Positions 4,205-10,746 of a DNA stretch of 20,040 nt are shown piece after piece. A program made the translations under genes and the position numbers. Source of the stretch: a virus (lineage: Duplodnaviria > Heunggongvirae > Uroviricota > Caudoviricetes); IMG/VR virus record IMGVR_UViG_2667527582_000006; one strand, 5' to 3'. The notes beneath the pieces are model-generated. The model worked only from the letters and a program-made list of their open reading frames with translations. It was not told the origin of the DNA and did no database searches. The stretch's first letter is position 1. Each line of letters starts with the position of its first letter.

Positions 4205-4396
4205 TTAAAGACCTGCCGGGATTTCGATATTATCCTGGTGAATAACTTTATCGACCGGGTAACAGTTACCGGGAATTTTCTGTTCGGTTGCTGCAGTCAT
4301 ACACTCCTGCATTGTCCTGTGAACACTGACTGCAATATCAACTGGCTCTCCGGAAACAAGAAAAACTGTCAGAACAAGCACAAATGCTGAATTCAT
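4205..4396 (-). CDS. ydfD: Small exported/membrane protein, YdfD-like (63 aa)
   Basis: MNSAFVLVLTVFLVSGEPV signal-like N-terminus; ATG overlaps the dicB stop (ATGA); size and position downstream of dicB match remembered ydfD. Confidence 0.55.
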   Translation of the reverse strand: MNSAFVLVLTVFLVSGEPVDIAVSVHRTMQECMTAATEQKIPGNCYPVDKVIHQDNIEIPAGL

Positions 4397-4581
4397 TGTG
4401 CACATCCTTTTGGCATCAGACGTAAACGAGCCAGCATTGAAACAATGCATATTTTATTTAATAGCTCCCGTTCTTGTTTTCTCTTGTTAATGGCATCTTC
4501 AGTAAATACTGGGTTACTGATAGTGACACCAATTTCAAAACAACCTTCAGACGTATTAACGTTTGGTAATAACGTTTTCAT
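4393..4581 (-). CDS. dicB: Cell-division inhibitor DicB (62 aa)
   Basis: MKTLLPNVNTSEGCFEIGVTISNPVFTEDAINKRKQERELLNKICIVSMLARLRLMPKGCAQ; GAGGA 8 nt upstream of ATG; immediately downstream of DicF. Confidence 0.7.
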   Translation of the reverse strand: MKTLLPNVNTSEGCFEIGVTISNPVFTEDAINKRKQERELLNKICIVSMLARLRLMPKGCAQ

Positions 4582-4750
4582 TATCGCGTCCTCAACAATG
4601 AATTTTGTGATGCAGTGCCTGGTGCCTCCAGGTGACGTTAACCAGTTAACAATTAACGCCGGATACAGAGAATCCACCCATAACACTGTTTTTGGTTTTA
4701 ACTGTTCCGCGTGCGCTCAGCCGCATTCACCACATCACAAAATTCACTTT

Positions 4751-4808
4751 AAAAAGGGCGGCAGAGCAGTCACGGAGTAAAACTGATACCGCCAAACGTC
4801 ACCAGAAA
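4751..4808 (-). ncRNA. dicF: DicF small regulatory RNA
   Basis: Minus-strand sequence UUUCUGGUGACGUUUGGCGGUAUCAGUUUUACUCCGUGACUGCUCUGCCGCCCUUUUU matches remembered DicF, with a 3' U-tract; sits between ydfC and dicB as in Qin. Confidence 0.7.
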
Positions 4809-5148
4809 ATTGATAACAGAGGGCGTTGCAGCGGGGTTGTCACTTAAGCGTATGGTCAACCTGACAACCCGGTGTCCTCAACGGGGAAGAAATAACCCCG
4901 CCATACTTACCGCCGCACCATTTCGCGGGTTGCCACAACCGGAAGCGCACGGTCGACGAAAATTTAACGACAGGCTATCTATGAACCAGCTACCTCGCCG
5001 TGCGCTTTCGCGTTATGGTCTGACTTTTCAGGGAAATATCCTTTCAGTAAACTGTCAGTGCCGGATGCTCACCCGTGTCCGGCGCACGCACTCCACCTCA
5101 CCCGTGGAGAACTCCTTAATTACCAACCTTAGCTTCGTTGGTTAGCTA

Positions 5149-5367
5149 TTAACGCGGGTATGTAATCATTCTGGCAATGCTTAATGCCGCTGCTTTTTCC
5201 AGATTGGTGATATCCTGCTCCAGAGCGGACAGATTTTCAGCCTGCTTAGCCCTGGCTTCATTGGCCCATTTCAGATCCTGCGCTGCATTAATTTTCTGGC
5301 GCATCCACTCATAAAGTTCATCATCGGTATAGTCTGGCGCGATGATGACGGGTTCTCGTTTCTGCAT
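5149..5367 (-). CDS. ydfC: Small prophage protein, YdfC-like (72 aa)
   Basis: ORF with GAGGAA RBS; size and operon position (ydfA-ydfB-ydfC-dicF-dicB) match. Confidence 0.55.
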   Translation of the reverse strand: MQKREPVIIAPDYTDDELYEWMRQKINAAQDLKWANEARAKQAENLSALEQDITNLEKAAALSIARMITYPR

Positions 5368-5396
5368 ACTGATTCCTCGCGGTGCTGTTTCGCTTA

Positions 5397-5525
5397 TCAG
5401 CCGTTAGATTTTGCCGAACTGGAAAGCGCCTGTTTAAATTCGTTGAAGCTGTGAGCTTCTTCGCCTTCGGCAAGGCCTTCGAAGTATTCTTCGTAAGCCT
5501 TTTCCATGATTGTGTCAAAATCCAT
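5397..5525 (-). CDS. ydfB: Small acidic protein, YdfB-like (42 aa), not in the ORF track
   Basis: Manual translation MDFDTIMEKAYEEYFEGLAEGEEAHSFNEFKQALSSSAKSNG; GGTGAG RBS 7 nt upstream; start 1 nt after the ydfA stop. Confidence 0.5.
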   Translation of the reverse strand: MDFDTIMEKAYEEYFEGLAEGEEAHSFNEFKQALSSSAKSNG

Positions 5526-5682: not shown

Positions 5683-5889
5683 GCTGACCTCATTTCCCCT
5701 TAACGCCGGGGTAGCGGAACAAAAACCTGCTGCATAGTTATTAAAGTTGAACCCTGCCGTCATGTTCTTACGCCTCGGGCTGGCTACTTAACCCCTGACC
5801 ACTGCCTGGTAACTCGAAGTATTGCCCTGCATTCTGTAGGATGGGGTGAGGGAATGAATGAAGTTTAGAAAGACGAACTTTCCAGGTCA

Positions 5890-5909
5890 ATGTTTTTTTA
5901 TCAAAACAT
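5890..5909. promoter_or_regulatory. Putative left operator (OL-like): palindrome ATGTTTT-N6-AAAACAT
   Basis: Perfect 7-bp inverted arms, 6-bp spacer, upstream of the leftward ydfA operon; same motif recurs at the cI/cro intergenic region. Confidence 0.4.
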
Positions 5910-5974: not shown

Positions 5975-6613
5975 TTAAATATCTTGTTGAATTTTAAAGC
6001 ATACGCCCAATATGCAAGATAGATCATCCAGCATAATTGAAGGGTAGCGAGGATTCGTGGGGACTAAAAGAATATCCGGCCCTTCTATCTCCAGTTTACG
6101 AATGACAGGTGTTGTGGTCCCTTTGGGTAAGGCAAGGACAATATTTCCTGGTTGTACGGTTCGATCGGGATCAACAAAAACTGTTGAACCATTTGGGATG
6201 GAAACTCCCCCACCAGATGTTGACATACTGTCACTCTCTAGAACAACTGCAAAGGTATTGACCGGGATTTCTCCGACAAGCTGCACACAAGAGGTTATTG
6301 AGGAATTTTTCATATAATCACTCCAGCTTGCTGCCTGCTGAAGTGATAGTAGCGGAACCGTTTTTATCGGCGGTAAAGATAGATCAAGCGAATCACCTGT
6401 ATTTAACTCTCCTCCATTAAGAAGCCAATTTTCGTTTACTTTCAATATTTTTGCCAGTGAACTTATGTAACGCGAGGACGGCGCTCCTCCACCGTTCATC
6501 CATTGACTTACGGAGCCTTTTGATGCGCCAGTGCCATTGACAAGGTCTTTGCCTTTCAGGTTTAGCGCATGCATACGTTGGGTTATGCGTTCAGATATAG
6601 TTTGCTTGCTCAT
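5975..6613 (-). CDS. CI-like prophage repressor (N-terminal HTH, C-terminal S24/LexA-like autopeptidase)
   Basis: 212 aa; HTH region KDLVNGTGASKGSVSQWMNG; S24-like region with Ser in VVLESDSMS and Lys in PVIRKLE; divergent from cro-like gene. Confidence 0.85.
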   Translation of the reverse strand: MSKQTISERITQRMHALNLKGKDLVNGTGASKGSVSQWMNGGGAPSSRYISSLAKILKVNENWLLNGGELNTGDSLDLSLPPIKTVPLLSLQQAASWSDYMKNSSITSCVQLVGEIPVNTFAVVLESDSMSTSGGGVSIPNGSTVFVDPDRTVQPGNIVLALPKGTTTPVIRKLEIEGPDILLVPTNPRYPSIMLDDLSCILGVCFKIQQDI

Positions 6614-6676
6614 GTTTTGATTTTAAAACACAGATGGTTTTGTTTCTTGACTTTCTTTGGTTTTGATTATTAAACT
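6612..6676. promoter_or_regulatory. Putative OR-like operator/promoter region between cI and cro
   Basis: ATGTTTTgattttAAAACAC at 6612-6631 overlaps the cI start codon; two further GGTTTTG(A/T)TT half-site-like repeats at about 6637 and 6659. Confidence 0.45.
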
Positions 6677-6704
6677 TTTGACGTTCAGTTTTATGGAGCG
6701 ACTC

Positions 6705-6935
6705 ATGAAAAAATCAGAAGTATTAGGCTATTTTGGCGGAGTTGTTAAAACAGCCGCAGCTCTAGGAACGTCAAAAACCACAGTCAGCATGTGGGGGGAA
6801 GAGGTTCCGTGGAAATGGGCGTTGCTAATTCAGGCAGTCACTGCCGGGGCGCTCAAATATGAGTTACACATACCGACGGTTGTCATTCCCGGTTCTGATC
6901 ATAATCCGCCTTCTAACCAAGGGGGGGATTCATGA
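6705..6935 (+). CDS. Cro-like HTH regulator (76 aa)
   Basis: MKKSEVLGYFGGVVKTAAALGTSKTTVSMWGEEVP... resembles P22-type Cro; GGAG 6 nt upstream; divergent from the repressor. Confidence 0.7.
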   Translation: MKKSEVLGYFGGVVKTAAALGTSKTTVSMWGEEVPWKWALLIQAVTAGALKYELHIPTVVIPGSDHNPPSNQGGDS

Positions 6936-10484: not shown

Positions 10485-10629
10485 ATACAGCGAACGCCAT
10501 TGGTTTAGTTGGATATTTACTGTGCCGGACAAAAACGGTTTGCGGGGAAATCTTAGTTAAGTAGAATGACTGCGGGTGCTTGAGGCTATCTGTCTCAGGC
10601 ATGAACACCAAAAGGCAGATAGAGAAAAG

Positions 10630-10693
10630 CCCCAGTTAACATTACGCGTCCTGCAAGACGCTTAACATTAATCTGAGGCCATATCTATGCGAC
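10630..10693 (-). ncRNA. Putative Sok-like antisense RNA of the hok locus (extent approximate)
   Basis: Minus-strand promoter-like TTGACC (10729-10724), 18-nt spacer, TAATCT (10705-10700); the transcript would be antisense to the leader-ORF start region, as in hok/sok. Confidence 0.3.
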
Positions 10694-10746
10694 ACATAGA
10701 GATTAGCCTCTTACGGACCGAAAGGTCAAGGAGAAGCAGGCTATGA
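10687..10746 (+). CDS. Putative mok-like leader ORF (19 codons), translationally coupled to hok
   Basis: ATG at 10687; stop TGA overlaps the hok ATG (cuAUGA). Confidence 0.3.
   Translation: MRHIEISLLRTERSRRSRL

Follow-up and report, generated by a model that had tools for sequence, protein, structure and literature searches.

A conserved pseudoknotted core in the precursor leader of the prophage small RNA DicF, a candidate scaffold for its two-step processing

Introduction

DicF is a 53-nt small RNA (sRNA) of prophage origin that, in Escherichia coli K-12, has been reported to repress ftsZ and other messenger RNAs (mRNAs) through Hfq-dependent base pairing, and the known phenotypes of the dicF locus have been traced to this short species. 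In the present study, we analyzed DicF and the leader that precedes it in a 20,040-nt stretch of DNA from a virus of the class Caudoviricetes (IMG/VR record IMGVR_UViG_2667527582_000006), which is referred to as the window and whose coordinates are used throughout. An earlier note, made from the sequence, had recognized DicF on the minus strand and drawn attention to a structured spacer of 340 nt between ydfC and dicF.

The closest described system is the dicBF operon of the K-12 prophage Qin (ydfABC-dicF-dicB-ydfDE). Primer extension and reverse-transcription PCR located one promoter upstream of ydfA and none within the operon, and a polycistronic RNA spans ydfA, ydfB, ydfC, the spacer and dicF (PMC10448788). 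Northern blots revealed a 190-nt and a 53-nt DicF species, both of which accumulate in stationary phase (Ragunathan et al. 2023, PMC10448788). The longer one depends on ribonuclease (RNase) III, as it is absent from an RNase III mutant and builds up when RNase E is inactivated; RNase III sets its 5' end, which therefore lies about 137 nt upstream of DicF, inside the spacer, while formation of the 5' end of the 53-nt DicF depends on RNase E (PMC10448788). The 3' end of DicF is generated by an intrinsic terminator or, in read-through RNA, by an RNase III cut 19 nt beyond. Terminated and read-through transcripts both exist in K-12, and the terminated one is a major species in the wild type (PMC10448788). 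Biogenesis of DicF through these two RNases is also attributed to Faubladier et al. 1990 by the later papers that cite that work.

Generally, sRNAs such as MicL, CpxQ and SroC lie at the 3' end of an mRNA and end at its terminator, while RNase E generates their 5' end at an A/U-rich site next to a structure. DicF is classed with them, and the spacer is the 3' untranslated region (UTR) of ydfC. Unlike these sRNAs, however, the DicF precursor requires a prior RNase III step and carries a large conserved pseudoknotted domain before the cleavage site.

Results and Discussion

DicF and its leader in the window

The Rfam covariance model of DicF (RF00039) matched the minus strand of the window at 4756-4807 with 76.7 bits (gathering threshold 48, E value 1e-15) and over its full length (model positions 1-52 of 52). 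Alignment with K-12 MG1655 placed the annotated 53-nt dicF (b1574) at 4808-4756, and the two sequences are identical across the aligned 53 nt, including the whole range of the Rfam model. The earlier assignment of DicF to 4751-4808 is thereby confirmed, the additional bases 4755-4751 being the U-tract of the terminator. Score, terminator with U-tract and location between ydfC and dicB all fit, and the window RNA is a member of the DicF family.

The comparison with the K-12 spacer that the earlier note had called for gave 98% identity over the full length; across 4690-5200 the mean column identity is likewise 98%, without internal indels and with nine base differences, three of which (4917, 4927 and 4892) fall in the core described below. 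With the same genes in the same order, an identical DicF and a nearly identical spacer, the published processing of the Qin operon probably applies here as well. Consequently, the idea that the spacer holds determinants of RNase processing is supported, because the published K-12 experiments used almost identical sequence. The locus is a long-known prophage sRNA with a published maturation pathway, and in that respect what had been noticed was already known. Overall, we consider it likely that this part of the window represents dicF and its precursor leader within a dicBF operon, matured by two cuts with the core of the leader as scaffold.

In complete E. coli genomes, the region is widespread: a match was found in 4,382 of 5,426 genomes, usually in more than one copy, and 3,301 of them retained at least 80% of the 511-nt query. 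Loci with DicF, 130 in number and taken from genomes as well as viral contigs, were compared; in every one the homology to the window spans 5028-4756, and its breakpoints lie at about 5128, 5106, 5088, 5036 and 5028. The spacer therefore consists of two parts, a mosaic ydfC-proximal stretch of 120 nt and a DicF-proximal stretch of 220 nt that is inherited with DicF. In RefSeq, no feature is annotated under DicF or the core in any of 12 sampled E. coli rows (e.g., NZ_AP018488.1 1655543-1655607), K-12 MG1655, in which dicF is annotated, being the exception. Exact DicF with an E. coli-type leader was also observed in genomes assembled from metagenomes under the labels Veillonella parvula, Collinsella sp. 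and a soil "Proteobacteria bacterium" (L007, L008 and L009); these contigs are most likely mis-binned enterobacterial prophage.

The possibility of an additional small RNA in the spacer, also raised by the earlier note, held up only in the form of the stable 190-nt isoform, which includes 137 nt of the spacer; as a separately transcribed gene it did not. A consensus promoter scan of the minus strand over 4808-5148 returned no promoter-like site, in agreement with K-12 primer extension, and the leader is without a promoter of its own. An independently transcribed sRNA gene in the spacer is hardly credible. Published global start-site data do suggest that KilS, the paralogue of DicF in the Rac prophage, can be transcribed from its own promoter, and an older report, as mentioned in PMC10448788, described a promoter upstream of dicB. 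However, besides the negative scan, primer extension and reverse-transcription PCR in K-12 found no extra promoter, and the 190-nt RNA is lost in the RNase III mutant.

Coding potential of the spacer

The earlier note had also seen no credible open reading frame (ORF) on either strand of the spacer, and our searches agree. Two mechanical ORFs, one of 111 aa on the plus strand (4810-5145) and one of 36 aa on the minus strand (4840-4950), gave no match in a Pfam search. The 111-aa frame is open in 30 of 98 distinct homologous regions, and one-base indels occur inside it (alignment A2). In addition, a 54-aa "hypothetical protein", WP_001331716.1, is annotated antisense inside the spacer (window 4981-5145, plus strand; NZ_CP020107.1 2489258-2489422); its frame matched only an FrsA-like family in Pfam, at an E value of 0.21 and far below the cut-off of that family. 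Judging from its unconserved frame, this protein is probably a false gene call. The spacer is non-coding because no Pfam match is significant, the frame is rarely open, and indels lie within it.

A protein-coding function for either the 54-aa antisense frame or the 111-aa frame therefore receives next to no credence from us. A mechanical ORF does exist, and NZ_CP020107 carries the annotation WP_001331716.1 at the corresponding position; however, mosaic breakpoints as well as the indels fall inside the frame, nothing is annotated there in K-12, and the compensatory changes described in the following section fit RNA stems, not codons.

A conserved pseudoknotted core in the leader

Two structural features of the spacer had been singled out beforehand, 9-bp inverted repeats and a CGGGG...CCCCG hairpin, and both are present, the repeats at the positions given for them. 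On the plus strand, the repeats match exactly, with GGGTTGTCA at 4834-4842 and TGACAACCC at 4862-4870, and CGGGG lies at 4882-4886 and CCCCG at 4896-4900. From the sequence alone their significance is modest. When the spacer (341 bp) was shuffled 500 times with its dinucleotides preserved, 13 shuffles contained a perfect inverted repeat with arms of 9 bp or longer and 3-40 nt between them, and the whole-region fold of the transcribed strand reached a z of -2.2 against shuffles. Conservation and compensatory changes are stronger evidence for the hairpins than such sequence statistics. The hairpins correspond to the stems P3 and P2, respectively, of a conserved core, which further contains the stems P0 and P1 and a pseudoknot, PK, whose 3' strand lies in the loop of P3 (Table 1).

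The predicted core fold is supported by compensatory changes in two alignments. In alignment A4 (MAFFT, 30 representatives), 96.2% of the cells are paired, double changes occur in 5 pairs and 9 cells, and none of 500 shuffles reached the score. In alignment A5 (model-based, 40 distinct sequences), 94.9% of the cells are paired, with double changes in 8 pairs and 32 cells; the covariation score is 0.126 versus 0.074 ± 0.004 after shuffling (0 of 500), and at most 58% of the cells are paired in slid controls. It should be noted that model-based alignments are biased toward the model and that kinship among the sequences inflates the shuffle statistics. A set of 83 close DicF-linked homologues was too similar for a covariation test, and its few "double changes" came mostly from one non-homologous Salmonella row.

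Among the stems, P2 is the clearest case of compensatory change as judged from the alignments. Its hairpin was found at the same place in 52 of 55 distinct variants, while the stem sequence is free to vary; about eight stem sequences were read, such as CUGGG/CCCAG, CAGGUG/CACCUG and CGAGG/CCUCG. In P3, a U-A to C-G change at 4864/4840 is present in 9 of the 40 distinct sequences, and G-C to A-U occurs once at each of two positions. PK, which stands outside the covariance model, is 99% paired in A5 and shows a U-A to C-G change there, with wobble intermediates also present; in A4 the same change is found in two separate lineages, P1 and a lambdoid phage (L253). The variation of P0 is mainly one-sided with pairing kept (U-G to U-A, G-U to G-C), and its single double-change column derives from P1/P7-type rows, which break another P0 pair.

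Alternatively, the conservation might reflect only history at the DNA level, either recent ancestry or a recombination junction, with hairpins that have no function as RNA. Lambdoid prophages are indeed mosaic, with breakpoints just upstream at 5028-5128, and the close homologues are almost without informative variation. We nevertheless regard this explanation as very improbable, considering the double compensatory changes in P2 and P3, the replacement of P2 stem sequences with retention of the hairpin, the PK change in independent lineages, and the transcription and processing of the region in K-12; the changes in P0 are mainly one-sided wobbles.

A permissive search with Rfam 15 over 4600-5400 gave no match of any kind in 4808-5148, even at E values up to 10. 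A likeness of the P3 loop region to 5S ribosomal RNA, seen by eye, was dropped when Rfam gave no support for it.

Table 1. Features of the DicF locus in the window and their supporting evidence
Feature	Position	Strand	Basis
Repressor gene, 212 aa, helix-turn-helix and S24-like	5975-6613	minus	ORF and domain search
Promoter-like site TTGACC-17-TAAACT, between repressor gene and ydfA	5862-5890	minus	Consensus scan only
ydfC coding sequence, 72 aa	5149-5367	minus	ORF; annotated ydfC in K-12 and in a RefSeq record 100% identical over 4690-5200
ydfC-proximal spacer, mosaic, not co-inherited with DicF	5029-5148	minus	Breakpoints; predicted hairpins, e.g., 5142-5137/5127-5122 (minimum free energy (MFE) fold)
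Long imperfect helix, 22 bp	4933-5018 (arms 5018-4993/4958-4933)	minus	MFE fold
Long-helix segments	5018-5012/4939-4933, 5010-5009/4941-4940, 5007-4998/4952-4943, 4997-4995/4956-4954	minus	MFE fold
Conserved pseudoknotted core, about 115 nt	4825-4939	minus	Covariation; covariance model R1, 155 bits here
P0	GUUGUGG 4939-4933 / CUGCAAC 4831-4825	minus	
P1	CCGCG 4928-4924 / UGCGG 4917-4913	minus	
PK (pseudoknot, 3' strand in P3 loop)	GUAUGG 4906-4901 / CCAUAC 4855-4850	minus	
P2 (CGGGG...CCCCG hairpin of the earlier note, 4882-4900)	CGGGG 4900-4896 / CCCCG 4886-4882	minus	
P3 (9-bp repeats of the earlier note; TGACAACCC on the plus strand is the 5' arm)	GGGUUGUCA 4870-4862 / UGACAACCC 4842-4834	minus	
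Linker with RNase E site	4809-4824	minus	Cut U4809/U4808 from mapped K-12 DicF 5' end; RNase E dependence published
DicF sRNA, 53 nt	4756-4808	minus	Rfam RF00039 and mapped K-12 b1574
DicF terminator stems	4793-4787/4763-4757 and 4785-4781/4771-4767	minus	Predicted fold, Rfam
U-tract (UUUUU) of DicF intrinsic terminator	4751-4755	minus	Sequence; K-12 published termination after dicF
STnc100-like structured element, dicF-dicB spacer	4604-4744	minus	Rfam RF02076, 34.1 bits versus gathering threshold 47, E value 1e-5 (sub-threshold)
dicB, cell-division inhibitor, next operon gene	4393-4581	minus	NCBIfam NF049927 (DicB), 132.8 bits versus cut-off 100; ORF

Proposed maturation of the DicF precursor

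A length of 190 nt, measured upstream from the DicF 3' terminus, reaches to about 4945, which lies in the 3' arm of the long imperfect helix upstream of the core, and this predicted helix is the probable substrate of RNase III. For 75 of 82 homologues, the MFE fold includes its inner part; both arms are conserved, whereas the apex (4992-4959, 30-odd nt) is hypervariable and swapped among several unrelated sequences. The two hairpins singled out by the earlier note are real, but they are not the RNase III determinant because they lie downstream of its site. Moreover, P0 and the long helix are mutually exclusive because both use GUUGUGG, and after an in-silico cut at 4945, the stems P0 to P3 appeared in the MFE fold of 64-72 of the 82 homologues.

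The maturation would then proceed as follows. Transcription from the operon promoter upstream of ydfA would produce the polycistronic RNA, much of which would end at the DicF terminator, as published for K-12. RNase III would cut the 22-bp helix (5018-4993/4958-4933) near 4945 in its 3' arm and would thereby free GUUGUGG (4939-4933) to pair with CUGCAAC (4831-4825). Closure of P0 would complete the pseudoknotted core with P2 and P3 inside it, and the A/U-rich linker (4824-4809) next to this folded domain would stay single-stranded. The exposed linker would in turn present a defined RNase E site, yielding the exact 5' (seed) end of DicF. Cleavage by RNase III generates RNA with a 5' monophosphate, a known stimulus of RNase E, and stem-loops reportedly direct the precise RNase E processing of the 3' UTR-derived sRNA MicL. 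The mapped 5' end of DicF reads A-U↓U-U-U, which fits the known RNase E preference RN↓WUU (arrows mark the cut), and a predicted small hairpin (4818-4811/4804-4797) has the site in its loop. That the core acts as a scaffold for the processing and the stability of the pre-sRNA is our best guess, and it is the weakest step of this chain.

Several points weigh against the proposed maturation. Nested MFE folding of the 190-nt RNA (4945-4748) favors an alternative fold (-69.7 versus -60.6 kcal/mol, with the pseudoknot uncounted), in which, for the window type, the 5' half of the core, GCGGCGGUAAGUAUGGCGGGG, pairs with the 3' half of DicF (the 3' arm of the terminator) and GCUGCAACGCC pairs with the 5' arm of the terminator; the heptamer GGCGGUA is common to the core and the DicF terminator. 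This predicted fold could be a masking or switching structure, or it could be an artefact of ignoring the pseudoknot. On close homologues, RNAalifold pairs 4953-4944 with 4918-4908, a poorly supported pairing that the weak covariation among them neither confirms nor dismisses. The RNase III cut was positioned from the size of an RNA on a gel, and the published "813/814" cut could not be mapped to the genome: a consensus promoter scan upstream of K-12 ydfA found no site, and the quoted transcript lengths could not be reconciled. The conservation of the P3 loop is partly by construction, because divergent cores were retrieved with a P3-loop pattern. Furthermore, DicF-like sRNAs occur without the core, as in Rac KilS and phiSTEC1589, and the near-invariant unpaired stretches of the core exceed what a passive scaffold would seem to need.

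Distribution of the core and its 3' tails

A blastn search of the leader against phage records recovered divergent cores of 75-92% identity in phage cdtI, Stx2c phages, Salmonella phage F1055, a Rac-like phage, P1 and P7, and a scan with the P3-loop pattern added 120 more viral contigs. The covariance model R1 detected one copy per locus (100 hits in 100 loci), and a single copy likewise in the window and in the complete genome of cdtI. The unpaired stretches of the core are nearly invariant among distant phages. Rfam searches at E values up to 0.01 placed no family over the core in P1, P7, F1055 or cdtI, the STEC1589 locus also having been scanned, and the core sequence strings were absent from the literature searched, in which no description was found as far as the search went.

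Downstream of the core, at least 10 unrelated 3' domains were found, composed of a UUU/U-rich stretch, a GC-rich terminator and a U-run and starting 12-31 nt past P0, and canonical DicF is the commonest of them. The genes that follow also vary and include dicB, kil and rdgC-like genes, among others, while upstream of the core there is either a repressor gene with a promoter or a set of ydfA-like genes. Types located after ydfA-like genes contain the sequence of the 3' arm of the long helix, which is absent from cdtI, F1055 and P1. In all cases the core belongs to a repressor-controlled early operon (Pban in P1, and downstream of cI or dicA elsewhere), and in cdtI, F1055 and P1 it falls within the untranslated start of the early transcript. 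The stretch from the early promoter or the repressor gene to the core contains no gene annotated on the same strand in P1, cdtI, F1055 or the Rac-like phage, F1055 being a partial exception with one small hypothetical ORF. A core with interchangeable tails and no Rfam family appears to be under-described.

Several individual loci deserve mention. In phage phiSTEC1589-Stx1c (L135, 1480-1830), which encodes N, the long helix is directly followed by a DicF-like RNA (35.6 bits) and the core is absent; because helix and DicF-like RNA are kept in this phage, the core can be lost as a unit. A phage deposited as infecting Actinobacillus pleuropneumoniae (L259, PP818812.1 3657-8754) carries a Rac-like dicA, the core RNA, kil and recE, with a core 85.7% identical to that of the window; a Pasteurellaceae host is surprising and may reflect host misassignment or recent transfer. 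In phage cdtI (L134, 1157-1211 and 1627-1672), a near-consensus PL-like promoter, TTGACA-16-CATAAT, is followed about 280 nt downstream by the core, then by a strong terminator and the first early-left ORF. In K-12, a second megablast place was considered as another core and rejected, as R1 gave no match in the Rac region searched.

This distribution bears on whether the core has a job of its own. In such a case, the 190-nt RNA of core and terminator would be the conserved functional unit, the core would bind a protein or RNA or be released by the RNase III and RNase E cuts as a fragment of about 137 nt, and DicF-type ends would be interchangeable tails. In line with this are the 75-92% conservation of the core among phages with unrelated 3' domains, its near-invariant unpaired stretches, the stable accumulation of the 190-nt species in K-12 stationary phase, and its position with no annotated gene before it in the phages named above. 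Cores also outnumber DicF in complete E. coli genomes, with 9,463 places (507 of them on plasmids) versus 7,244, although these counts come from queries of unequal length. However, a core with its own function has no known partner, target or phenotype, it is without an Rfam family or a trace in the literature searched, and the known phenotypes of the locus belong to the 53-nt DicF; we judge this reading rather unlikely. A broader proposition is possible and is put forward tentatively, namely that the core, not DicF, is the most conserved element of the dicF locus and constitutes an RNA domain autonomous in phages, carried with interchangeable tails by thousands of E. coli prophages and by the cdtI, Stx2c, Salmonella F1055, Rac-like and P1/P7 phages, in which the 190-nt RNA would be the ancestral functional unit and the 53-nt DicF a derived one. 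The function of such a domain may be the binding of a protein or RNA polymerase, or a fold switch that masks or exposes the tail.

Another candidate role is the control of transcription in cis, in which the core, as an attenuator, a riboswitch-like element or a put-like modifier of RNA polymerase, would set the balance between stopping at the DicF terminator and reading through into dicB, kil or other early-left genes. The arrangement invites this reading: a conserved structured domain is followed 12-31 nt on by a variable intrinsic terminator, always in a repressor-controlled early operon, and K-12 produces both terminated and read-through transcripts. In addition, the annotation of the cdtI genome contains no N gene anywhere, and the alternative fold of the window type pairs GCUGCAACGCC with the 5' arm of the terminator and the 5' half of the core with its 3' arm. 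Nevertheless, antiterminator pairing is not consistently predicted across the types of 3' domain (a crude test in which some terminators were mis-placed), the terminated transcript is a major one in wild-type K-12, and no ligand suggests itself.

The put RNAs of phage HK022, cis-acting antiterminator RNAs that bind RNA polymerase and so suppress terminators downstream, are the obvious comparison, as they are likewise structured RNAs in lambdoid early operons without N at that position and lie upstream of terminators, a comparison that concerns function only. Each put RNA measures about 70 nt, has two long stem-loops in a V shape and occurs after both PL and PR, whereas the core is about 115 nt long, contains four stems and a pseudoknot and is present in a single copy per phage contig. 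Membership of the put type was rejected, given that R1 has no match in HK022 24000-34500, the immunity region that holds putL and putR, that the architecture differs and that there is no second copy per phage. A put-like function by analogy is unlikely, and cis control of transcription as a whole seems improbable to us.

Relatives of the locus in Rac and P1-type phages

The preferred reading, in which the core is the scaffold of a DicF precursor, can be compared with two further loci. In Rac, KilS (b4833, in the kilR 5' UTR; L260, 4406-4503) shows a DicF-like sequence, with an STnc100-like element and a gene for a cell-division inhibitor following in that order, at the same early-left position as in the window. 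Unlike the window locus, it has no core, as R1 found none in the K-12 Rac region, and no long helix, and its DicF score of 39.1 bits is below the gathering threshold of 48. On sequence grounds, KilS is a DicF paralogue that the Rfam threshold misses.

The leader of the ban operon in P1 and P7, part of which is labelled a "dicF-like region" in the P1 record, contains a core of 75-80% identity that R1 scores at 88-93 bits. Compensatory changes were observed in P2 and P3 in both phages and in PK in P1 only, and the core is followed by an intrinsic terminator. In contrast to the window, Pban promoters controlled by C1 lie about 40 nt upstream of the P1/P7 core, there is no long RNase III helix, and transfer RNA (tRNA) genes follow; the 3' domain is unrelated to DicF and gave no Rfam DicF match.

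Operon context

On the minus strand, the order of the window is repressor, promoter-like site, ydfA, ydfB, ydfC, 340-nt spacer, dicF, 174-nt spacer, dicB, ydfD and a large exonuclease-like ORF. Read from this gene order, which is that of K-12 Qin, the region belongs to a Qin-like lambdoid prophage, of which it forms the early-left (dicBF) operon. The promoter-like site upstream of ydfA is a candidate for the early-left operon promoter, its place being analogous to that of K-12 dicBp. Compared with Qin, this arm of the prophage looks more complete, with a full-length exonuclease-like ORF of 835 aa.

The immunity region (5975-6935) is unlike that of K-12 Qin, with a helix-turn-helix and S24 (LexA/UmuD-like) repressor of 212 aa in place of DicA and a DicC-like Cro. 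Despite this different immunity region, the ydfC-dicF block is 98-100% identical to that of prophages having DicA. As far as these identities tell, the boundary between the immunity region and the early-left operon is a mosaic junction.

The sub-threshold STnc100-like element between dicF and dicB has counterparts 3' of other DicF-like RNAs, namely before kilR in Rac (L260, 4223-4409) and in phiSTEC1589 (L135, 1651-1858). In P1 and P7, an STnc100-like element lies after two tRNA genes and upstream of tciA, which is named terB in the P7 record (L131, 2842-2961; L132, 2910-3025). From its placement, the element looks like a conserved leader of cell-division-inhibitor genes. Elsewhere in the window, the sok antitoxin RNA was detected on the plus strand at 10574-10745 (Rfam RF01794, 106.7 bits), and by this match the same prophage has a hok/sok type I toxin-antitoxin locus.

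Implications

The locus itself is known, and its conserved core is the only part that could repay experiments. The present analysis provides a structural model with coordinates for the action of RNase III and RNase E, in which a refolding step ties both cuts together. Furthermore, the hairpins of the leader are part of a conserved RNA domain that bears different sRNA tails and is common to lambdoid, Rac-like and P1-type phages. An independent function of the core, if there is one, would account for the retention of the leader by toxic dicF-type loci, and it would define a phage pre-sRNA family in which the 5' body is constant and the regulatory 3' ends vary.

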